Origin: Candidatus Saccharimonadia bacterium
GTDB lineage: Bacteria; Patescibacteriota; Saccharimonadia; Saccharimonadales; 2-12-FULL-41-12
Length of the DNA: 64,000 bases
Assembly: GCA_963717365.1 (NCBI GenBank)
Contig: OY970327.1
Coordinates: forward strand, 523,599 to 587,598
Direction of reading: 5' to 3'
The position numbers were made by a program, and so were the translations under genes. Positions 11,532 through 59,374 of this stretch are shown piece by piece. Position 1 is the stretch's first letter. Every line of letters begins with the position of its first letter. Below the pieces are notes generated by a model. That model was not told the DNA's origin and ran no database searches. It worked only from the letters and a program-made list of their open reading frames with translations.

Positions 11532-13061
11532 ATGGAGCAGGGCTTCATTCAGACGTTTGTACGAGGTGCCCAGACTCGTTTAATAGGGTGGTTTACTCTA
11601 AACGGCTTACTACTTGTAGGGGTTGGATGGATAATACATCAGTATCTTACTGATGACTGGCTTATTATTGCTGGAGGAATGACTGCCGTCGCTCTCATTA
11701 GTGCCATGTTTCTTGGACGCTTAGTTGGCGATATAATAACTAAGCCGACTAGTTATATTTCTCAAGCCATCCTTCATATTTCACCGTCCGAGCAGCTGGT
11801 GGCCGCTCCAAATGTCGATGAACTTAGATTTGGCAAGGAACTAGCCAGTAACTTAACCCGCCACATTTACAGCTACGCGTCGGCGGCACACAGCGACCTC
11901 ACGCAGCCGCAAACGCTACCTCCCGGTTTACTCGATCAGTTGCCGATTGCCGTTATAGGTATCAATGAAGAGGGGGTCATCACGCTTGCCAATAGCAAAG
12001 CACTTAAAACTATCCGGGCAGAGTCGCTGGCTGGACAAAAGCTAGATGATGTACTGATATTTGTCTCCGACGATACTATTTCACTGAAAGATTGGCTGGT
12101 CTCAACTAGCGAAGCGAATTTGAACGATTTGAATTCATGGCCCAAAATGGAAATTAGCGCTGTTAAAGATGCTGCGTCGCTCGGATATTTCGATGTGGCA
12201 GCCAGCTTTAGCAAGCACAGCGCCAGCGGTACAGAAACACTAATCGCGTTGTATGACCACAGTGACGCCTACAGTGATGAAACTGCCTCGATCAGTTTCA
12301 TATCACTGGCCGTGCACGAACTCCGCACCCCTGTAACTATTTTGCGCGGCTACATTGAAGCGTTTGAAGAAGAACTGGGTCCCGGCCTAAATCCGGAAGC
12401 AGCTGATTATCTGAAAAAAATGAACGCTTCAGCCGAAGGCGTAACCAGCTTTATAACCAATATTCTCAATGTTGCCCGCATCAACCAAAACCAGCTGGCT
12501 CTCAATCTGGGCGAAGGCGACTGGAATACCGTTTTGCCAGAAATAGTTGAAGAGCTGCGCAACCGGGCAGCCGTCTATGGCAAACAACTGACACTCACTA
12601 TGCAGCCGGGCTTGCCGGCGGCCGCAATCGATCGACTCACTATTGGTGAAGTTATTACCAACTTGGTCGATAATGCCATTAAATACAGCCCCGGTAACGC
12701 TGAAGACATTGCAATTACCAGTAAATTAAACGCCGAAGGATTGATCGAGACCTCTGTCCAGGATCATGGCGTCGGTATACCCGGTTCTGTTATGCCTAAC
12801 TTGTTCAGTAAATTTTCGCGTAATCATCGTAATAAAGCCCAGATTGGCGGCACTGGTCTGGGCCTATATCTGTGCAAAGCCATTGTAACGGCTCACGACG
12901 GTAATATTTGGGTTAGCTCCAAAGAAAATGAAGGCAGTACCTTTAGTTTTACTCTTGTTCCGTTTGACCAGCTTGCCAAGGAACTACAAACCAACAATAA
13001 TGAAGGTATTGTACGCGGCTCGCACGGCTGGATCAAAAATCATTCAATGCAACGAAGGTAA
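11532..13061 (+). CDS. sensor histidine kinase
   Basis: Two N-terminal TM helices. H-box LAVHELRTPVT. G2 box GGTGLGLYLCKAIV. Confidence 0.9.
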   Translation: MEQGFIQTFVRGAQTRLIGWFTLNGLLLVGVGWIIHQYLTDDWLIIAGGMTAVALISAMFLGRLVGDIITKPTSYISQAILHISPSEQLVAAPNVDELRFGKELASNLTRHIYSYASAAHSDLTQPQTLPPGLLDQLPIAVIGINEEGVITLANSKALKTIRAESLAGQKLDDVLIFVSDDTISLKDWLVSTSEANLNDLNSWPKMEISAVKDAASLGYFDVAASFSKHSASGTETLIALYDHSDAYSDETASISFISLAVHELRTPVTILRGYIEAFEEELGPGLNPEAADYLKKMNASAEGVTSFITNILNVARINQNQLALNLGEGDWNTVLPEIVEELRNRAAVYGKQLTLTMQPGLPAAAIDRLTIGEVITNLVDNAIKYSPGNAEDIAITSKLNAEGLIETSVQDHGVGIPGSVMPNLFSKFSRNHRNKAQIGGTGLGLYLCKAIVTAHDGNIWVSSKENEGSTFSFTLVPFDQLAKELQTNNNEGIVRGSHGWIKNHSMQRR

Positions 13062-13063
13062 TT

Positions 13064-13462
13064 ATGGAATTAACCCAGGAACCAATCCAAACTCCGCCGG
13101 CTGGCAAACGCGTCCTTTGCATAGAAGACGAACGCTTTATTGGAGAACTCTACCGGCGCTCGCTTGAAAAAGCCGGCTACACCGTAGACGTTATCCCGGA
13201 CGGCCAGGCAGGCCTGGACGCGGCCCTCACTAACACCTACGATGTTATCCTGCTTGATATTATGATCCCACAAATGCTGGGGATTGACGTGCTTCACCGC
13301 CTGCGAACTGAAAAACCAGATCTCCGGGCTAAGATTATTATTACGACTAACTTGGAGCAAGGTGATAAATCACGCCATGCCATTGAGCAGGAAGCCGACG
13401 GCTATCTTATTAAAGCCGAGATCACGCCGCGCCAGCTCGTAGAATTCATCGGCCAAATCTAG
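13064..13462 (+). CDS. response regulator, receiver domain only
   Basis: Receiver motifs VLCIEDE, ILLDIMIP (phospho-Asp) and YLIKA. There is no output domain. It starts 2 nt after the kinase stop. Confidence 0.9.
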   Translation: MELTQEPIQTPPAGKRVLCIEDERFIGELYRRSLEKAGYTVDVIPDGQAGLDAALTNTYDVILLDIMIPQMLGIDVLHRLRTEKPDLRAKIIITTNLEQGDKSRHAIEQEADGYLIKAEITPRQLVEFIGQI

Positions 13463-18831: not shown

Positions 18832-20136
18832 ATGCTCATGGTTATTATTGCAGCTGGTATCGTTATGGTGGGATTGGCAATTGCCAGTTACTTTTTCTGG
18901 CGTAAACATTCCAAAAAACATGGCGAGCAGGGCAAGGTAAAGCAATTGACTGGAGCGCTCCTCAGTAAAGAAATTCAGGCCGAAATACTAATCGAGTCTA
19001 TCACCGACGGAATCATTGTGACCGACACACAAAATGTTATTACCTTATTCAACAAAGGCGCCGCTACCATGACAGAGTGGGCAATTGAAGAAGCAATGGG
19101 GATTGACGCCCGACTGGTGTTACAGATATTGGCTGACGAAAAAACTAGCGCTTTGTTTGAACAAGATAATCATCCATTTTCTCAGGTATTACAGAGTCGC
19201 AACCCGTTCAATCAAACCGTTCAGCTGGTAAACCGACAGGGTCAGCGCTTGTTTGTTTCACTGGCAATTTCTCCTGTGGTAATTCCTAAGAATAATGAGC
19301 TGGTGGGTACGGTGGCGGTATTTCGGGATGTCAGCCGCCAAAAGAGCGAGGAACAGCAACGGGCCGATTTTGTCAGTACGGCCAGCCACGAGATGCGGAC
19401 GCCGGTGGCGGCAATCGAGGGTTATCTGGCTTTAGCTATGAATGATAAGGTCAGCCAGGTTGACAGCAAGGCCCGCGATTATCTAGAAAAAGCTCACGCT
19501 AGTACCCAGCATTTAGGAAAGCTGTTCCAGGATCTGCTTACTAGCGCCAAAGCCGAAGATGGCCGTCTGACCAGCCATCCGGTTGTTACCGAAATGGGAG
19601 GATTTATTGAGCAGCTGGCCGATGATTTACGGTTTGGCGCCGAGAAAAAAGGACTGCAAATGGAGTTAGTTACCAGTAGCGTCAATACCGAATCCGGCGC
19701 AATTGATGCCCGTGGTACGGTAATTAAGCCGCTGTACTATGTCCACGTAGATCCTGATCGTCTCCGCGAAGTTATTACCAATGTGTTTGATAATGCCGTT
19801 AAGTACACTCCTGATGGGAAGGTTTCACTTGCCATCACTGGTAATAATGAAGTTGTCCAGGTGCGTGTCCTTGATACCGGACCTGGTATACCTCCTCAGG
19901 ATGTACCTCATCTGTTTCAGAAGTTCTACAGAGTTGATAACTCGGCAACGCGCAGCGTCGGCGGCACTGGGTTAGGATTGTTTATTTGTAAAAAAATTAT
20001 TGAGCTATACAACGGTACTATATGGGCCGAAAGCGAGCTTGGGAAGGGCAGTACTTTTTATATAAACTTACCGCGACTGACATCACAGCGGGCTACGCAG
20101 ATGCAGCAAGCTGAAAAGGCCAATCCTACCACTTAA
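18832..20136 (+). CDS. sensor histidine kinase with a PAS-like domain
   Basis: N-terminal TM helix. H-box TASHEMRTPVA. G2 box GGTGLGLFICKKII. Confidence 0.9.
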   Translation: MLMVIIAAGIVMVGLAIASYFFWRKHSKKHGEQGKVKQLTGALLSKEIQAEILIESITDGIIVTDTQNVITLFNKGAATMTEWAIEEAMGIDARLVLQILADEKTSALFEQDNHPFSQVLQSRNPFNQTVQLVNRQGQRLFVSLAISPVVIPKNNELVGTVAVFRDVSRQKSEEQQRADFVSTASHEMRTPVAAIEGYLALAMNDKVSQVDSKARDYLEKAHASTQHLGKLFQDLLTSAKAEDGRLTSHPVVTEMGGFIEQLADDLRFGAEKKGLQMELVTSSVNTESGAIDARGTVIKPLYYVHVDPDRLREVITNVFDNAVKYTPDGKVSLAITGNNEVVQVRVLDTGPGIPPQDVPHLFQKFYRVDNSATRSVGGTGLGLFICKKIIELYNGTIWAESELGKGSTFYINLPRLTSQRATQMQQAEKANPTT

Positions 20137-20235: not shown

Positions 20236-21624
20236 ATGGCTAAAATAATGCTCGTCGAAGACGATAACAATCTACGTGAAATTTACGGTGCCCGCCTTCA
20301 GGCGGAAGGACATGAAATTGTTGCCGCCCGTGATGGGGAAGAAGCCCTAGCACTTGCAGTCAAGGAAAAACCTGAACTGATCATATCTGATGTTATGATG
20401 CCCCGAATCAGCGGTTTTGACATGCTGGATATCTTACGAAATGCTCCTGAAACCAAGAACACTAAGGTAATAATGATGACTGCCTTATCCCAAGCAGAAG
20501 ACAAATCCCGCGCTGATAAACTTGGTGCCGACCGTTACCTTGTTAAATCGCAAGTTACGCTTGAAGATGTCGCCAGTGTCGTCAGTGAAGTATTAAATGG
20601 TCCTAACGATGGAACGGCAGTTAATCCAGCCGATACCTCAGAGACATTGCCAACAGTCAGTCAGTCAGTCCCAGCAGCTGTACCTACGCCAGCTCCAGCT
20701 CCGGCTGTAACCGCCGCACCAGCCCCGCAAGCACAACCCGAAGTACAACAACAAACACCAACCCCTCAGCCAGCTCCAGTCGCACCAGTTGACCCCGCTC
20801 TAGCTTTAGCCGAGCCACAGCAATCAACAGAACCAGTTTCTGCACCCCTGCCACCGGCATCCCCTGAGATCATACCTGTTACTGCACCGCCGTCCGATCA
20901 ACCTGCCACTACTACCCCCGTTGCAGATGATGATGCAGCTACCAAAACCGACAATACGCTTCAGGCTATAGCTGCCGAATTAGCACACGCCAATCTTGAC
21001 GATCCTGCTGTGTCTTCCGTCGTCGTTACTGAAACTGCTACTCAAAGCCCTGATGAGACGCCTAAATGTCAACCAACGCCGGCTATAGCTGTAGAAATGC
21101 CCCCGCAAACTGACTCGGCACCGCCGCCAGCCAGCACGGACCAGCCAACACCAACTACTGAAACTGAGCAACCGACTAACGACTTATTTGCTGGCTCTAG
21201 CTTGGCTGAAGTGCTAGCCACCGAGGAAAAAGGTTCAACCGGCTCATTGCCTTCAGCTGCACCAGCTTCTCCGCCAGCCGACCAATCATCCGAACCAACC
21301 GCGACACAGCCAGACACACAACAGCCAGTAGGTGAAGAAACAACTGCGAATAATGTGATACAGGCTAGTCAGTCTGCCATCGCGGCAGCTCCACCTCCTG
21401 AACCAGAGCCAACGGCTGATGAACCTGCCCAAGATGATGATTCATCTTCCACTAACAATAGCGGCATGAAAGTTATTAATCCGATTGGCGACCCATTGGC
21501 TTCACCTGATCTTGATAAACTATTGGCCGATGAAGAACGTAAGCTTGCTGTTGAAAACCCGGTCGCCAGTACCGTTATCACGCCAGAGAAAAAATCTGAC
21601 GAACTCAATAATATTTCTCTGTAG
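20236..21624 (+). CDS. response regulator receiver fused to a roughly 340-aa Pro/Ala/Thr/Gln-rich low-complexity tail
   Basis: Receiver motifs MLVEDD, LIISDVMMP and YLVKS in the first 120 aa or so. The remainder is PAPAP/TPTP-type sequence that ends in a short structured-looking segment (MKVINPIGDPLASPDLDKLL...). Confidence 0.85.
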   Translation: MAKIMLVEDDNNLREIYGARLQAEGHEIVAARDGEEALALAVKEKPELIISDVMMPRISGFDMLDILRNAPETKNTKVIMMTALSQAEDKSRADKLGADRYLVKSQVTLEDVASVVSEVLNGPNDGTAVNPADTSETLPTVSQSVPAAVPTPAPAPAVTAAPAPQAQPEVQQQTPTPQPAPVAPVDPALALAEPQQSTEPVSAPLPPASPEIIPVTAPPSDQPATTTPVADDDAATKTDNTLQAIAAELAHANLDDPAVSSVVVTETATQSPDETPKCQPTPAIAVEMPPQTDSAPPPASTDQPTPTTETEQPTNDLFAGSSLAEVLATEEKGSTGSLPSAAPASPPADQSSEPTATQPDTQQPVGEETTANNVIQASQSAIAAAPPPEPEPTADEPAQDDDSSSTNNSGMKVINPIGDPLASPDLDKLLADEERKLAVENPVASTVITPEKKSDELNNISL

Positions 21625-46706: not shown

Positions 46707-48215
46707 CTATTTCCCTGTTAATCTAGGGTTGTTAAAGCCATTAATAAGCCGAGTAAATTCAGCAGCATCTTCTCCAGACGGCAGCTGGTTGCCAAGCTTT
46801 CCGGCGGGGTCATACACAAAACTTATGATTTCACTTAGCGGCATGCCAGCAAGAGCATCGGGTACGGCAGATATCTTTGCCTGGTAGTTATCACCTACCT
46901 GTTCTACTACCATTTCACCTCGCACGCTGCCCCGAGTAGTGACCATGGCTACGTCATGGACCGTTCCGGTATATACATAATTCAGGACTCTTTCTCCAAG
47001 AAGCTGGACCAGACGCTCTTGTTTTGAGCATTCCGGAGATAAACGTTCTTGAATTTTTTCTGGTATTTTGTGGGTTCTCAATAGAAAAACTGCCGGTCCA
47101 ATTTTTGACCCAATAAGCTGCTTGAACTCTTCTTCAATACTAGTGTCAGTCAGGGTGATTATCGCCATCAAAGATTTATATTTATCCGCGTAGCTCATAT
47201 CGTTCGCGTCTACAAAACAAACCTCTTTCGTTTTAGGAAAAAATTCAATAATTGGAAACGCGACATTATTTCGGGTCACTGCGCTCAGCGTAATTGGTAC
47301 ATTTTCTCCATGTTCAGTAACCGGCTGAGAAATTTTTAAGGCTACCGAGTATGTATTGTCGTCGTAATTTACTACGCTTCTACCAGGTAATCCCTTCGTT
47401 TTTATATTGTTGACGTGTTGTGGATCGCCATCAGGCACTACGTCTATCTGATGGAAAACAGAATTCGTGTCACTGAGACTAGAACCAAAGTAAATCGCCA
47501 GCCAAGCCCCTAACGCCGTAGTTAGTTGTTCGCTATTGCGCAGCCGTTCGCTATGCACAAATTCACTAATAGCAGCACTTACTTCCGGCTTACCGTTATC
47601 TTTACGTATTAGCTTTCGCAAGCTCTCTATTAATTCTAAGCGCTGAGTCTGCTCGTCATCCTGTACGGCAAAGACTGAATCATCGGTAATCTCCTGGCCA
47701 ACTTGGACATATGAGCATGAGCCGTCAATCCGCGGTTCAAACGCGGCAACTGGCATTAAAACTCGGCCGCCAGCTACCATATCTGCCAGCCAGATGTCAC
47801 CAGGTACTTTTTTTGTGAAGATAGCTGGTTCCTTTGTTTTTCTTTTGAGACGACCTTTTTTGACTTCTACAATCCGAACTTCTGGTTCTTCATTCTTAAA
47901 GTTCTGTACCAGCATAAACGGCATGTTAGTCGTTTCCACTTGTTGCCGGCTGTAGCGGTCAATATAGCCACGTCGATATGCTATTTGAGTTGCCGCGCAG
48001 AGCTGTGATATGGGCACCGTCATACCACTTACTACTACTCGTTCTTCCAGTGCACCTATCGCCAAGATATTATCCGCTGCGTGTTTCATTGAATTTACAG
48101 CGACACGCGACAATTCAGCGGCCGCCACGCTGCATGGCCCGTATTCCAAGTTTAGCGCGGCACCAAGCAACGAACGATGCGCTTCCGGCGTTTCAGGAGC
48201 TCTCTCAATTGACAT
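46707..48215 (-). CDS. hypothetical protein (502 aa, cytoplasmic, no motif recognised)
   Basis: Long uninterrupted ORF. TAAAGT (48223-48228, minus sense) lies 7 nt upstream of the ATG. Confidence 0.5.
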   Translation of the reverse strand: MSIERAPETPEAHRSLLGAALNLEYGPCSVAAAELSRVAVNSMKHAADNILAIGALEERVVVSGMTVPISQLCAATQIAYRRGYIDRYSRQQVETTNMPFMLVQNFKNEEPEVRIVEVKKGRLKRKTKEPAIFTKKVPGDIWLADMVAGGRVLMPVAAFEPRIDGSCSYVQVGQEITDDSVFAVQDDEQTQRLELIESLRKLIRKDNGKPEVSAAISEFVHSERLRNSEQLTTALGAWLAIYFGSSLSDTNSVFHQIDVVPDGDPQHVNNIKTKGLPGRSVVNYDDNTYSVALKISQPVTEHGENVPITLSAVTRNNVAFPIIEFFPKTKEVCFVDANDMSYADKYKSLMAIITLTDTSIEEEFKQLIGSKIGPAVFLLRTHKIPEKIQERLSPECSKQERLVQLLGERVLNYVYTGTVHDVAMVTTRGSVRGEMVVEQVGDNYQAKISAVPDALAGMPLSEIISFVYDPAGKLGNQLPSGEDAAEFTRLINGFNNPRLTGK

Positions 48216-48366: not shown

Positions 48367-49736
48367 CTATAAACTCAGCTGGGAACTTAGGCTATCAATT
48401 GAGACGCGCTGCTGCTTGGTAGTGTCGCGATTGCGAACGGTTACCGTATTATCTTCTAGGGTATCGAAGTCAACTACCACGCAGTACGGCGTGCCAATCT
48501 CATCCTGGCGTCGGTAGCGCTTACCGATATTGCCATTGTCGTCCCATATGACATTGCCGAATTCTTTTTTTAGACCTACATAAACTTCGCGAGCTTTTTC
48601 AACCAGTTCTGGCTTATTTTTAAGCAATGGTGAGACTGTCACACGGGTTGGTGCCAAATGTGTTGGTAACTTTAGATAAATACGTTTTTCGCCGTTTACC
48701 TCATCTTCGGTATAGGCACTTGTGAGCACTGCCATTACAGCCCGCTCTACGCCAAAGCTTGGTTCGATTACATGAGGTACAAATTTTTCTGTTGAGCCCT
48801 TAATTGTATATTCCATATTCTTACCAGACACTCGTTGGATGTTTCCTAGATCAAAATCTGTGCGGTATGCCAGTCCAAGCAGTTCATCACGGCCAATTGG
48901 AAAATCAAATTCAAAATCAATCGTACGCTTGCTGTAATGGGCACGATCTTCTTCTGGAACCTCTAGTTCGTGGATTGCTTCTTTTGGTAAACCAATAGCT
49001 TCGCACCATTTCCAGACGGCGGTTCGCCAAGCTTCAAAGGCTTCTTCCCATTTATCTGGATGGACAAAATATTCTATTTCCATTTGCTCAAATTCGCGTG
49101 AGCGAAAGATAAAATCGCGTGGACTAATTTCATTACGAAATGCTTTCCCTTGCTGGGCGATACCAAATGGAAGATCCGGATAAAAACAATCTACTACGTT
49201 TTTATAATTGGTGAATATACCTTGTGCAGTTTCTGGACGAAGGTATGAGGTTGCACTGGATGCGTACTCTATTGCCGTGTCATATTCGTGTCTGTTCGAT
49301 CAGTCAAGGATAGTTTGTGGTCTACTCTAAAGTTAGGACCAACCACCGTCTGAAACATCATATTGAACTGCCGCGCTTCTCCAAAAGTATTTAATTTTCC
49401 GCAAGCCGGACATTTACTTGTATCGATTTTGTCTTCCCTGAAACGGGCTTTGCAGTTTAAGCATTCCACCAGCGGATCAGTAAATGTATCAACGTGACCG
49501 CTTGCTTGCCAAACTTTCTGATTCATTAGAATTGCCGCATCAACGCCAAACATATCTTCACGGTCATCTACAAACATTTCCCACCACAAGCTCATAATAT
49601 TGCGCTTTAAGGTAACACCGAGCGGACCATAGTCCCAAGTTCCCGAAAGCCCGCCGTATATTTCCGAGCCTTGATAAATAAAGCCGCGACGCTTACATAG
49701 ACTAACAATATCTTCCATTCGCACTTCTTTGCTCAT
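48367..49736 (-). pseudogene. glyQS: glycyl-tRNA synthetase (dimeric class II GlyRS) interrupted by a frameshift
   Basis: The N-terminal 155 codons (49736-49269) end in ...FNMMFQTVVGP plus 21 off-family residues and TAG. The -1 frame is open from 49299 and reads ...ASSATSYLRPETAQGIFTNYKNV...FRNEISPR..., joining the 48367..49083 ORF. Confidence 0.8.
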
Positions 49737-49792
49737 AATGAGTTCATTATAACAGTTCGCCCCTGTTTGTCATTATGAGATTCAATTAATCA

Positions 49793-50467
49793 TTACAGTT
49801 CGGTGGCGTTTGTGCGCAACAAGGTTTGTGTGAGCGACTGCAAGCGATCTTCCGAACCAAGTTCATTTTGGATACGCGGCGGCTTGGGATGAACCATACA
49901 TAAACGAAGGATTTTTAAATCATCTTTGGTAAACGCGCCGTCGCTAACTGATATGAATTGTTGCCGGTCGTGATCAAATTCAAAGGCTTCGGCTACCTCA
50001 GCCGTCTCCAGCCGTAAGTTGGGCTGACTGCCCGACAAATGCAAAATATGCAGATTAAACCAAATATCAACAATTCTTGGATCATAGTCTGGATTATTTA
50101 ATGAAGTTAATGAAGTTGCTAGTAAAGGGTAATATTCCTGGCCGCTGCGGCCGTCGGCGATGCTGTTAATTGCTTTGATATGGGCAAAAGCTCGTTGCAT
50201 CCGGGTCATGTCTTTAACTAATTCTCCAAAATGAGTGTGCAGTCGAGCAGACGTCAGTGTCATCATGTTTGACCTACCTTCTACTAGGCTTACATCTGAC
50301 TCGCTCAGCAGTTCAATACCTCCAGCTAGCCGACTTTTCTGACTCCGTACCCCTTTTGCCAATACAGACACTTTACCCAGACGCAAACACAGCAATGTCA
50401 GGATACGATCACGTTCACCATAATCAATTCTGGATAATATAATGGCGCGGTCTTTATGTTGTTTCAT
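49793..50467 (-). CDS. recO: DNA repair protein RecO
   Basis: OB-fold N-terminus AIILSRIDYGERDRILTLL...AKGVRSQKSRLAG. Confidence 0.75.
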   Translation of the reverse strand: MKQHKDRAIILSRIDYGERDRILTLLCLRLGKVSVLAKGVRSQKSRLAGGIELLSESDVSLVEGRSNMMTLTSARLHTHFGELVKDMTRMQRAFAHIKAINSIADGRSGQEYYPLLATSLTSLNNPDYDPRIVDIWFNLHILHLSGSQPNLRLETAEVAEAFEFDHDRQQFISVSDGAFTKDDLKILRLCMVHPKPPRIQNELGSEDRLQSLTQTLLRTNATEL

Positions 50468-50486: not shown

Positions 50487-50867
50487 TCAAGTACGATCTT
50501 CGATTTGCTGCAAAACTGCCTTCAGCTGGTGGAGTCTGGCTGTCGGTTTATATAAATAGTCAATTACGCCAGACTTGTGCCACTCGGCTCGGGATAGGCC
50601 AGTATCTTCGGGTGCGATCTGACTGTAAATAACAACCGGCACGCTCATCCAATCTGGGTACGAACGGAATTCTTGCAAAAACTCAACACCGTTGTGACGG
50701 GACATTGCGAGTTCCAGAACTACTGCGTCCGGCCGCTGGCTATCAGCCTGAGAAATAGCTTGCTGTGCATCGGAAGCGTAATTCACCGTTGTTTCATCGC
50801 TTTCAATAAAATGACCGATCGTACTTGCCAGTGCTTCATCAGGTTCTACAAGTAATATATGTTTCAT
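50487..50867 (-). CDS. receiver-domain protein with Glu at the phospho-acceptor position (pseudo-receiver)
   Basis: Receiver fold (ILLVEPDE...VVIYSQ...YLYKP), but the DxxMP position reads VVLELAMS. Confidence 0.7.
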   Translation of the reverse strand: MKHILLVEPDEALASTIGHFIESDETTVNYASDAQQAISQADSQRPDAVVLELAMSRHNGVEFLQEFRSYPDWMSVPVVIYSQIAPEDTGLSRAEWHKSGVIDYLYKPTARLHQLKAVLQQIEDRT

Positions 50868-50876
50868 GGGTAAAAT

Positions 50877-51641
50877 TTATATCAGTGAAAGCTGCTCGCT
50901 GCGTGGCAGCTCTGTGACTAAGCCGTTCAATTTACCCATATGCTTAACGTGGAGGGCGCCACCAATTGCCCGACATAAACCGTCAGCAATCGCCAAAGAA
51001 ACATGCGCGCTACTGCCGGCGCGGCCCAGCGGCAAATGCGCTCTGCCCTGCAGCTCAAGTGCTTGACTGATATCGGACTGCGACAGGGGCGCGGCACTGA
51101 ACATACCAATACCAATGGCGCCACGGCGGGTTTTATAGCTCCGCAGTATTACTTCCGGATGAGCAGCAGAAGACTGACGATTTGTTTTCTGCAAATCAAG
51201 CAGGGTCTTTCCGAATACTTGTAAAATTGCAGCTAAAGCTGGCTTGTGTGACATGACTGGTTCTTGGGTGCGATTATCTATAACAAAAGAAATATTCTGG
51301 CCGACAGTCTGACCTTCCATTGAATGGAGCGTATCGTACATAACCGCCCCTGTATTTACTGGTGATAGGTTCAGCGACAGTTGGCCATACTCGGTCTGGG
51401 CGGTTAGTAGATAACTGTCTATCAGTTGTAGTGTTTGCTCGGCGGTTTGCTGGATGGTAGCAAATTCAGATACGTTCCCTGCTTCGGCTTGCCGGGCAAT
51501 ACGGATCAGCGGCTGCTTAAGCTCATACGTCAATGCCTGCAGCAAACGGTCCTGGCCGGCGGCTGGCTGTAAATCCTCAAATTGCTGACTGGTATCATTA
51601 CCCAAAATGCAGACTCCGTTACCCTCGTCACTTCTTAACAA
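50877..51641 (-). CDS. cytoplasmic histidine-kinase-like protein lacking the phospho-acceptor His (H-box LTYELKQPL)
   Basis: DHp-like and HATPase-like regions are present. The G2 box is degenerate (GSSAHVSLAIADGL). The start is uncertain: TTG at 51641, or TTG at 51605 preceded by GGAG. Confidence 0.6.
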   Translation of the reverse strand: MLRSDEGNGVCILGNDTSQQFEDLQPAAGQDRLLQALTYELKQPLIRIARQAEAGNVSEFATIQQTAEQTLQLIDSYLLTAQTEYGQLSLNLSPVNTGAVMYDTLHSMEGQTVGQNISFVIDNRTQEPVMSHKPALAAILQVFGKTLLDLQKTNRQSSAAHPEVILRSYKTRRGAIGIGMFSAAPLSQSDISQALELQGRAHLPLGRAGSSAHVSLAIADGLCRAIGGALHVKHMGKLNGLVTELPRSEQLSLI

Positions 51642-51705
51642 GATTATAGCACGGCCGATGGCTGTAATAACGATGTGTAATCTACTGAATTACTAAACTT
51701 TGTAC

Positions 51706-52368
51706 TTATGGACTAAAGCTAAAGCTGGGAATAATAATTGCATTAAAATCATTGATGCGATCCTTAGACTCGGCAGATATTTTGATAGTTTTATCACGAA
51801 GTGGTAAGAAAATAGTGGAGCCTACTTTACTCTGGTCAATTTGACCGTCAGCTCGTAATCCTACTACCGAAGGAACCTTAGCCAAGGCAAATGCGGCTAC
51901 CGTTACTTTTCCGCTCCTTATAACCGGATCTAGTTGTTGTAGTGATGTGTCATAGGGTGTATTTAGGACTTCTATTTTTAACGAATATGCCGTAGCCGGA
52001 TTAGCTGAGACAAGTTCCGGTTGCATAAGTACAATCAAGGAGTTATTCTGCTCATTTTCATAAACACTCCATGTTTTAGGGTATTGAAACGAATAACTGC
52101 CATATTGTGCCGGACTGCTGTAGGTTTTATAGGGATTTTTCTCTCGTTCAAGGAATTCATTGTCTTTTTCGGTTTTAGCCCGGTCTACCGCTACCTCGAC
52201 TGCGCCGGCAACTTTTTCATCAAAATTGGTCTTATAGTCTTGCGCTTGTACGTATGCCCAGGCGCCAAAGCCAAGTGCACCAACCAGTAATGTACCGCTA
52301 ATAATAAGCGGAATAACCAATACATTCATTATGCCAGCTTCAGATTTTCTGAGGTTCATAATGCTCAT
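51706..52368 (-). CDS. hypothetical membrane-anchored protein
   Basis: TM helix VLVIPLIISGTLLVGALGFGAWAY. The ORF-track start at 52461 lies inside the inverted repeat, so the ATG at 52368 is preferred. Confidence 0.5.
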   Translation of the reverse strand: MSIMNLRKSEAGIMNVLVIPLIISGTLLVGALGFGAWAYVQAQDYKTNFDEKVAGAVEVAVDRAKTEKDNEFLEREKNPYKTYSSPAQYGSYSFQYPKTWSVYENEQNNSLIVLMQPELVSANPATAYSLKIEVLNTPYDTSLQQLDPVIRSGKVTVAAFALAKVPSVVGLRADGQIDQSKVGSTIFLPLRDKTIKISAESKDRINDFNAIIIPSFSFSP

Positions 52369-52375
52369 GGTAACG

Positions 52376-52541
52376 TAAAGCCGTCCCAAAACAAAATCTG
52401 CTTTTATAAATTGATGGATCGGTGAGTTAAAAATGCTTATTTCTAATTGAAGTATATCCATAGATATGCTGAGTGAAGAATAAGCATTTTTAGCCGCCGG
52501 GACGCAATTTAGAATGTAGATTTTGTTTTGGGACGGCTTTA
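52376..52541. repeat. 166-bp nested perfect inverted repeat
   Basis: The outer 24-bp arms are 52376-52399 and 52518-52541. The inner 14-bp arms are 52428-52441 and 52479-52492. Confidence 0.85.
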
Positions 52542-58975: not shown

Positions 58976-59374
58976 TTATACGTTGAGCTGTTTTTTAATG
59001 CGATCTACAATATCGGCAATAACAACTTGTGATTTAACTAGGTAGTCATCAACGCCAAGTGATTCGGCTCGTTCTCTGTCTGCGTCCTGATTGAGAGCAG
59101 TCAGCATGATAATTTTAACATCGGCTGCTTCAGGTGTATTTCTAATGATATCCAGGACATCGAAACCACTGACTTTAGGCATCATTACGTCTAAAAGTAC
59201 TAGGTCTGGCTTTACCTCGAGAATAGTCTGTAAGGCGTCTTCGCCGTTTGCGACTCGAACGGCATTAAAGCCCTCAGCTTCCAAGCGCATGGTGTAAACA
59301 TTTGCCAGATTGTCGTCATCTTCGACGATAACTATTATTTTTTGAGATGAGTCTGTAGTGTTTGTATTTTCCAT
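58976..59374 (-). CDS. response regulator, receiver domain only
   Basis: IVIVEDDD, LVLLDVMMP and YLVKS motifs. No output domain. Confidence 0.85.
   Translation of the reverse strand: MENTNTTDSSQKIIVIVEDDDNLANVYTMRLEAEGFNAVRVANGEDALQTILEVKPDLVLLDVMMPKVSGFDVLDIIRNTPEAADVKIIMLTALNQDADRERAESLGVDDYLVKSQVVIADIVDRIKKQLNV

Follow-up and report, generated by a model that had tools for sequence, protein, structure and literature searches.

Histidine kinases and receivers that have lost their catalytic residues are each known. A kinase fold without one or more kinase functions is called a pseudo-histidine kinase (Collins and Childers, cited in PMC12632262); the His is absent from 0.9% of HisKA domains and the Asp from 2–4% of receivers, and roughly one in four such receivers has Glu instead (PMC12632262, PMC12548384). 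What is unusual is to find both halves of one cognate operonic pair degenerate. Here, we describe such a pair, a kinase-like gene and the single-domain receiver gene next to it, in a 64,000-nt stretch of DNA from Candidatus Saccharimonadia bacterium (contig OY970327.1, positions 523,599 to 587,598; hereafter the window, in whose coordinates all positions are given). Our literature search returned no described pseudokinase/pseudo-receiver cognate pair, which, given its limited coverage, is absence of evidence only.

The pair works most like two described systems, DivL-DivK and PsmA, yet it belongs to neither, because it has no sensor domains, no conserved Tyr, no ATP-binding boxes and no phosphorylatable partner. 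In Caulobacter crescentus, the kinase fold of DivL carries Tyr for His and binds the single-domain receiver DivK without phosphorylating it, and reversed or non-catalytic signalling has been described for DivL (PMC4211667, PMC5361649). According to the literature, however, DivL has PAS sensor domains, a conserved Tyr and an ATP-binding CA (catalytic and ATP-binding) domain, and the signal is phosphorylation of DivK, a true receiver. Our pair departs from this type in each respect, as it lacks a sensor domain, has Tyr in only 23 of 193 members of the kinase-like family, has lost the ATP boxes and includes a receiver with Glu at the phospho-site. DivL (4q20) was nonetheless among both the sequence and the fold matches of the kinase-like protein, and DivK was among the fold matches of the receiver. 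PsmA of the Streptomyces polarisome also resembles the pair, since the residue in its H-box varies (Glu, Asp, Gln, Val, Tyr), its ATP motifs are degenerate and it functions independently of phosphorelay through protein-protein interaction; unlike the pair, it is a large hybrid whose receiver domain keeps the Asp, and it is confined to Streptomycetaceae (PMC12963549). Our locus, from a different phylum, encodes a minimal 242-aa kinase-like protein and a separate Glu-receiver.

For the receiver, the closest described proteins are the Glu-type pseudo-receivers CmrT (C. difficile) and AtvR (P. aeruginosa), the plant pseudo-response regulators (PRRs) and the engineered PhoB D10A/D53E. They share with it a Glu phospho-site, the loss of one metal-binding acid and the retention of Ser/Thr, Tyr and Lys, and they have been inferred or shown to be constitutively active (PMC12548384, PMC12632262; PhoB structure 2jb9). 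They differ in having DNA-binding or other output domains, and most of the characterised bacterial ones are orphans; among 20 characterised bacterial pseudo-receivers the sole non-orphans are CmrT and FrzS (PMC12632262). The receiver in the window, by contrast, is a single domain that is always coupled to a kinase-dead partner. FrzS of Myxococcus xanthus is a pseudo-receiver that acts by protein contact, but it has a non-acidic phospho-site and a coiled-coil fusion, and no kinase-like partner gene; it was the fold match with the highest identity to our receiver (~30%) and also appeared in its sequence search. Finally, RetS of Pseudomonas aeruginosa and proteins of the Spo0B/ChpT type use histidine-kinase folds for binding and not for autophosphorylation. 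RetS, a large hybrid kinase in the membrane, has another kinase as its target, whereas Spo0B and ChpT retain the His and pass phosphate on. The kinase-like protein has the degenerate CA domain of the Spo0B/ChpT type but not the retained His.

Residues and fold of the receiver

The pair first drew attention in a reading of the bare sequence, the original prediction, which proposed that both phospho-sites are substituted, His by Tyr in the kinase and Asp by Glu in the receiver. All the peptides it quoted (ALTYELKQPLI and GSSAHVSLAIADGL in the kinase-like protein, VVLELAMS in the receiver) lie where it placed them, as do those it used for comparison: LAVHELRTPVT at 12306..12338(+) and TASHEMRTPVA at 19378..19410(+) in two kinases, and LLDIMIP, IISDVMMP and LLDVMMP in three receivers of the same window. 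In the receiver, VVLELAMS spans 50700..50723(-), and a phmmer alignment with KdpE put E52 opposite D52, with S82 at the Ser/Thr position and K107 at the Lys position, in agreement with the claim that these two are kept while the phospho-Asp is Glu. The same alignment set E8-P9 opposite E8-D9, and the loss of the second metal-binding acid had been missed.

The protein scored 55.5 bits against the Pfam Response_reg family (PF00072; gathering cut-off 30.2 bits, E=7.4e-15). Its AlphaFold model has the standard (beta-alpha)5 fold with a mean predicted local distance difference test (pLDDT) of 94.9, and a fold search with this model gave template-modelling (TM) scores of 0.81–0.86 to PhoP, KdpE, PhoB, RR468, FrzS and DivK; the structure of the constitutively active PhoB D10A/D53E (2jb9) was also among the matches. 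A catalytic receiver has an Asp phospho-site and two acidic metal-binding residues. Ours does not have this set, and it fits the Glu subclass of the pseudo-receivers or aspartate-less receivers as these are defined in PMC12632262 and PMC12548384.

Other single-domain receivers are encoded in the window at 13064..13462 and 58976..59374. A 462-aa response regulator (20236..21624(+)) adjoins a PAS kinase (18832..20136); its residues 4–105 form a receiver with canonical residues, and the remaining ~350 residues, taken to be an output domain, match no Pfam family.

Motifs and fold of the kinase-like protein

We numbered the residues of the kinase-like protein on its 254-aa form. In the AlphaFold model (pLDDT 82.9, predicted TM score 0.79), ~25 disordered residues at the N-terminus lead into two long helices, followed by an alpha/beta domain; no transmembrane or sensor domain is present, as had been proposed. 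When the model was searched with Foldseek, the top solved matches were WalK, HK853, RetS and DivL (E ~1e-11). Against Pfam the protein matched HisKA at no better than E=0.13 and HATPase_c not at all; the window's two true kinases reach 8e-27 and 8e-33 for HATPase_c and 1e-11 and 2e-15 for HisKA. NCBIfam holds no family model for the protein, the best matches being unrelated kinase equivalogs at E ~1e-3. A profile built from 29 family members, however, matched the kinase 7z8n in the PDB at E=1.5e-6, followed by RetS (second-best, ~1e-3) and DivL (0.02).

These alignments bear out the predicted substitution. ALTYELKQPLI spans 51504..51536(-), and the profile placed its Tyr column opposite the His of SHEIRTPL in 7z8n and "shvsLaiA" opposite "GtGLGLvI". 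With hhalign, Y39 stood opposite the His of TASHEMRTPVA in the PAS kinase of the window, and SSAHVSLAI opposite GGTGLGLFI, so the G2 box is degenerate. No profile alignment put another His at the acceptor position of the kinase-like protein or an Asp at the active site of the receiver. Model and profile both show the arrangement of a HisKA kinase, that is, a DHp (dimerization and histidine phosphotransfer) hairpin followed by a CA domain of the Bergerat fold, but the acceptor His, the Asn of the N box, G1 (DxGxG) and G2 (GxGxG) are all missing. The protein thus corresponds to the definition of a pseudo-histidine kinase, with the fold kept, the catalytic His and ATP binding lost and the gene under selection. 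Because the acceptor His and every ATP-binding box are gone, we infer that this cytoplasmic, sensor-less protein is incapable of autophosphorylation and of donating a phosphoryl group.

Within the family, conservation is highest in the DHp hairpin (ELKxPLxxIARxAE ... LIDSYLL). At the C-terminus, the tail SEQLSLI (SxQLxL; 50877..50909) has no equivalent in canonical kinases. It is among the most invariant features of the family, with Q250 in 193/193 and S248 in 182/193 of the aligned members, and may be a docking motif.

Conservation of the pair in Saccharibacteria

We found 44 close homologues of the kinase-like protein (34–100% identity), the named ones all from Saccharimonadales. An exhaustive profile search returned 415 clusters (50% identity) at E<=1e-10, 130 of them at E<=1e-30; all are 210–250 aa long and therefore lack a sensor. 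One divergent subclade alone has 1452 database homologues, every named one from Saccharimonadales or Saccharibacteria. Across 193 aligned members the His position is occupied by Glu (95), Tyr (23), Arg (23), Phe (11), His (8), Gln (7), Asp (7), Leu (5) and Lys (5), and when 310 members were scored for the H, N, G1 and G2 motifs, none had two or more and 285 had zero. Other positions hardly change: L41, K42, P44, L45, I48 and E53 in the H-box and DHp helix 1, I63, L71, L73, D75 and L79 in helix 2, and a few glycines of the CA core are conserved, and many positions are invariant among sequences only ~30% identical. A conserved phosphatase motif (E/DxxT/N) was considered and rejected, as position +1 is E in 100, Q in 56 and D in 19 of the 193 sequences, and position +4 is L in 69, Q in 24, N in 23, H in 17 and T in 13.

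To follow the two genes together, we collected 98 receiver loci, of which 13 come from species-representative genomes, five from exact look-ups and 80 from JGI metagenomes. Wherever a locus had enough upstream DNA, a member of the kinase-like family lay immediately upstream of the receiver; the seven loci without a match have <130 nt there. In the 17 loci measured, the gap between the genes is −4 to +9 nt, usually an overlap, and recO overlaps or abuts the receiver gene in all 17. The conserved block reads LPG-synthase-like gene, xseA, xseB, methyltransferase, membrane protein, kinase-like gene, receiver, recO, glyS, NYN-domain gene.

The degenerate active site of the receiver is equally widespread. 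Among 48 close homologues, Glu8, Pro9, Ser/Thr82 and Lys107 occur in 48/48, and Glu52 and Tyr106 in 47/48. In a broader set of 93 distinct receivers, 89 have Glu and four have Asp at the phospho-site, 89 carry Glu-Pro as the acidic pair, and 92, 87 and 93 retain Ser/Thr, Tyr and Lys, respectively; not one of the 93 has an intact active site. On the kinase side, the 75 pairs in which the H-box is covered have Glu (50), Arg (8), Asp (7), Tyr (4), Leu (2) and Lys, Ala, His or Ile (1 each) at the His position, and none of these 75 complete pairs combines His with Asp. The question raised with the original prediction, whether orthologues share the Tyr/Glu combination, is answered yes for Glu and no for Tyr. 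We rejected a DivL-like "tyrosine" reading of the family because Tyr is a minority state. Tyr39 is incidental; the family has in common that no His is needed, together with the Glu and the Glu-Pro of the receiver.

The pair is under purifying selection and evolves like its housekeeping neighbours. In a comparison with locus L018 (85% and 71% amino-acid identity), the ratio of nonsynonymous to synonymous substitution rates (dN/dS) was 0.057 and 0.042 for the kinase-like and receiver genes, respectively, and among the neighbours 0.045 for recO, 0.034 for xseA and 0.013–0.09 for the others. L018 is the closest relative with DNA at hand, and synonymous sites are near saturation, so these ratios are rough.

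Two entries have unusual gene structures. In the groundwater metagenome-assembled genome (MAG) L013, the kinase-like gene is split into two overlapping open reading frames (ORFs) of 132 and 71 aa (L013:3968-4532), which could reflect an assembly error or a genuine loss in that lineage; this is also the sole paired locus with His at the acceptor position. In protein database entry P0042, from a 936-bp contig, a gene call of a single 219-aa ORF joins the C-terminal part of the kinase-like protein to the whole receiver, the intervening stop codon being missing, and could be a natural fusion or a sequencing error.

Transposon sequencing of the syntenic genes in Southlakia epibionticum

Wang et al. 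(2023; PMC10633639, Table S1) performed transposon sequencing (Tn-seq) in Southlakia epibionticum, with calls of NE (non-essential), GD (growth defect) or ES (essential) at three time points. We matched its genes to the pair by genomic slot and annotation, not by their sequences. The slot of the kinase-like gene is taken by SEML1_0246, a kinase gene of 708 nt called GD/GD/ES, whose normalised reads fall from 91.9 to 3.8 and 0.9, and that of the receiver by SEML1_0247, a response regulator gene of 366 nt that overlaps each neighbour by 4 nt and is called NE/GD/ES, with reads falling from 46.6 to 0.75 and 0; both are flagged as core families (PMC10633639). Upstream, xseA and xseB (SEML1_0242/0243) and the methyltransferase gene (SEML1_0244) are NE, while SEML1_0245, a PsbP-like hypothetical protein, is ES/ES/ES (PMC10633639). 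Downstream, RecO (SEML1_0248) is NE/NE/GD and keeps 25–36 insertion sites, and GlyRS (SEML1_0249) follows (PMC10633639). Because recO tolerates insertions, polarity on glyS is an unlikely cause of the calls for the pair genes. The canonical kinase/receiver pair of the same genome, SEML1_0318/0317, is NE (PMC10633639). Taken together, these data indicate that the pair is probably important for growth. They also suggest that the link to recO is perhaps merely positional, since recO is dispensable in S. epibionticum where the pair is not.

A proposed phosphorylation-independent complex

We consider it likely that the pair is an ancient complex of a pseudokinase and a pseudo-receiver, independent of phosphorylation, conserved throughout Saccharibacteria and acting by protein contact. 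The two proteins would be made in a fixed ratio from their coupled genes and would associate through the canonical docking surface between DHp and receiver, where the kinase-like protein is best conserved. The receiver would be locked in an active-like conformation and so be constitutively active by analogy, because the combination of Glu with loss of the second acid and retention of Ser/Thr, Tyr and Lys is that of PhoB D10A/D53E, CmrT and AtvR; Glu is moreover the commonest replacement of the phospho-Asp and often a phosphomimic (PMC12632262; PMC12548384). Information, if any, would be carried by binding and release or by abundance, and the output would pass to a target through protein contact, as the receiver has no output domain. 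The co-degenerated, phosphorylation-independent pair of the original prediction is thus supported by the alignments and the orthologues, its emphasis on Tyr as a meaningful substitution is not, and the "protein-protein switch" that it proposed may be how the pair acts.

Some observations weigh against this interpretation. Glu at the phospho-site is not always activating (PMC12632262). One of the two patterns used to search the metagenomes included Glu; loci containing the other pattern comprise 77 with Glu and four with Asp. In the four receivers with Asp at the phospho-site, the second acidic position is Pro or Thr and the partner has Asp replacing His. These receivers form one subclade (loci L017, L032, L033, L051 and L098, one of which has Cys at the Ser/Thr position) whose kinase-like partner reads LSDDLALPLL; the active site is not restored, and the subclade represents either drift from Glu to Asp or an ancestral relic. 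Last, SEML1_0246 matches HATPase_c at 1.1e-9 and HisKA at 5.3e-8, against 1.5e-29 and 5.2e-15 for the true kinase of that organism (PMC10633639). Such scores are weak for a real kinase yet better than those of any family member we examined, for which no Pfam hit is recorded; the S. epibionticum branch may be less degenerate or even catalytic, and the essentiality seen there may not transfer to the family in the window.

A bolder version, which we put forward only tentatively, is that of a universally conserved, fitness-critical two-component system beside recO, made up of a kinase-dead DHp/CA dimer and a naturally phosphomimetic single-domain receiver, that controls an essential process by binding alone, without phosphate. 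Growth, division, the cell envelope and the host-dependent lifestyle are candidate processes. If this were true, it would be the first cognate pair with both partners degenerate that is conserved across a phylum and required for growth, and a minimal natural model of how a receiver and a kinase fold signal without phosphoryl transfer. How pseudo-receivers switch is called a mystery in the field's own review, and the pair offers a small, genetically tractable system for asking what a two-component pair does without phosphate. Strong selection maintains this translationally coupled pair throughout a phylum of ultrasmall episymbionts whose reduced genomes have shed most regulation, and the genes in the same slot score as essential in the sole Saccharibacterium with Tn-seq data, where the canonical pair is dispensable. 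The analysis also brings to notice a core gene of Patescibacteria that is unannotated and mostly labelled "hypothetical protein".

Alternative explanations

The kinase-like protein might instead act on canonical receivers, as a His-independent phosphatase or a sequestering decoy, with the pseudo-receiver as a competitive regulator. The conserved His is indeed dispensable for HisKA phosphatase activity (PMC12632262), Glu40 beside the His position is kept in the clade, the DHp docking helices are highly conserved and there are other single-domain receivers in the window. Yet the E/DxxT/N motif varies across the family, and the strict one-to-one adjacency in every locus argues for the neighbouring receiver as the primary partner, so that we regard this explanation as unlikely.

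It is similarly improbable that the two proteins do not interact at all and are mere neighbours in a compact housekeeping operon, each with its own function (for example, the receiver with RecO). Saccharibacteria genomes are compact, overlapping genes are common in them, and in most loci the receiver gene overlaps recO as well. However, both proteins derive from families whose members act as cognate pairs, and neither gene order nor spacing varies across the 98 loci. The P0042 database entry reads both as one fused ORF, and insertions are lost from both syntenic genes of S. epibionticum but tolerated in recO.

A phosphorelay by non-canonical chemistry is very unlikely. In such a relay Tyr39 or another residue might be phosphorylated, the receiver's Glu or another Asp might accept a phosphoryl group, or one of the genome's true kinases might act on the pair in trans. 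DivL, which has Tyr at the same position and is among the structural matches, was originally reported to be a tyrosine kinase; Ser/Thr, Tyr and Lys are retained in the receiver, and two true kinases and three true receivers are encoded in the genome. Nevertheless, Tyr is present in few members and pairs (see above), the DHp has no His or other candidate residue conserved throughout the family, ATP-binding boxes are missing, and with the second metal-binding acid lost (Pro in 89/93) catalysis of phosphotransfer is not expected (for the role of this residue, see PMC12632262).

Strain-specific decay, in which a once-functional pair is turning into pseudogenes in this genome, could account for two phospho-sites substituted together, a kinase-like protein under the Pfam thresholds and the split gene of L013, but it is extremely improbable given that the same degenerate state recurs in 98 loci, conserved and adjacent, and in >1,400 database homologues, that both reading frames are intact, that dN/dS is ~0.05, on par with recO, xseA and the other housekeeping neighbours, and that so many positions are invariant at only ~30% identity.

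Gene layout and neighbouring features

The coordinates of the pair and of its candidate signals are listed in Table 1. The longest ORF of the kinase-like gene, the one originally described, is 50877..51641(-), with 254 aa from TTG 51641. The ORF stands, but the true start is probably TTG 51605, because a GGAG motif precedes it, because the TGnTATAAT element would leave TTG 51641 at or before the start of the transcript and because protein database entry P0001 is the 242-aa form starting at TTG 51605. The TGnTATAAT element is a possible promoter of the operon, judged from its sequence; our consensus promoter scan did not list it, as there is no qualifying −35 element. The gene order is as first described, with the receiver nine nt downstream of the kinase-like gene; recO starts 19 nt beyond the receiver gene, and glyS comes next.

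Table 1. Positions of the kinase-like/receiver pair, its diagnostic residues and putative signals in the window.
Feature	Position	Strand	Basis and remarks
Kinase-like (pseudo-histidine-kinase) gene	50877..51605	-	242 aa from TTG 51605
DHp-like helical hairpin	51390..51566	-	Residues 26-84; AlphaFold helices 26-54 and 57-84
TAT codon, Tyr39 at the phospho-acceptor His position	51525..51527	-	Aligned to the His of 7z8n and of the window kinase
CA-like alpha/beta domain without N, G1 and G2 ATP-binding boxes	50898..51365	-	Residues 93-248; model, fold search, motif alignment
Degenerate G2/lid segment GSSAHVSLAIADGL	50976..51017	-	Sequence and motif alignments
Spacer between the kinase-like and receiver genes	50868..50876	-	9 nt; gap in relatives -4 to +9 nt
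Single-domain pseudo-receiver gene	50487..50867	-	126 aa; Pfam, model, fold matches
Glu8-Pro9 codons at the acidic metal-binding pair	50841..50846	-	Second acid lost; KdpE alignment
GAA codon, Glu52 at the phospho-Asp position	50712..50714	-	KdpE alignment
Retained switch residues Ser82 (50622..50624), Tyr106 (50550..50552), Lys107 (50547..50549)	50547..50624	-	Alignments
recO, third gene of the conserved unit	49793..50467	-	Pfam RecO_N; context only
GGAG, Shine-Dalgarno-like motif	51614..51617	-	8 nt ahead of TTG 51605; read from sequence, fits the 242-aa form
TGnTATAAT, extended -10-like element	51643..51651	-	Upstream of the kinase-like gene; possible operon promoter; read from sequence

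A scan of the region for promoters and terminators returned 11 sites, against 9.3 in shuffled sequence, that is, no excess. The top promoter-like site (49746..49773(-)) lies between recO and glyS and consists of ATGACA, a 16-nt spacer and TG-TATAAT (11/12 matches). Its position suggests that glyS is transcribed from a promoter of its own, apart from a unit made up of the kinase-like gene, the receiver and recO. glyS itself is interrupted at 49263..49335, leaving ORFs 49269..49736 and 48367..49083 on the minus strand. Homology to intact orthologues changes frame between reference residues 133 and 136, with ~70 nt unmatched and a stop in between, and the part downstream first meets a start codon of its own at 49083; the break could be an assembly indel, a variable-loop insertion combined with an error, or a true frameshift in this essential gene.

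Immediately upstream of the pair, in every locus examined, is the gene of a ~217-aa membrane protein with one N-terminal transmembrane segment and no Pfam hit (51706..52461(-); ~51706..52359 by its orthologues). Its counterpart in S. epibionticum is SEML1_0245, which is PsbP/Mog1p-like by structure and flagged as Patescibacteria-enriched (PMC10633639). At the other end of the block, between glyS and the NYN-domain gene, lies a 502-aa ORF with no Pfam hit (46707..48215(-)). Loci L014, L016 and L018 have a short gene of 142–175 aa in its place, which suggests that the 502-aa ORF is a lineage-specific insertion in a block that is otherwise conserved.

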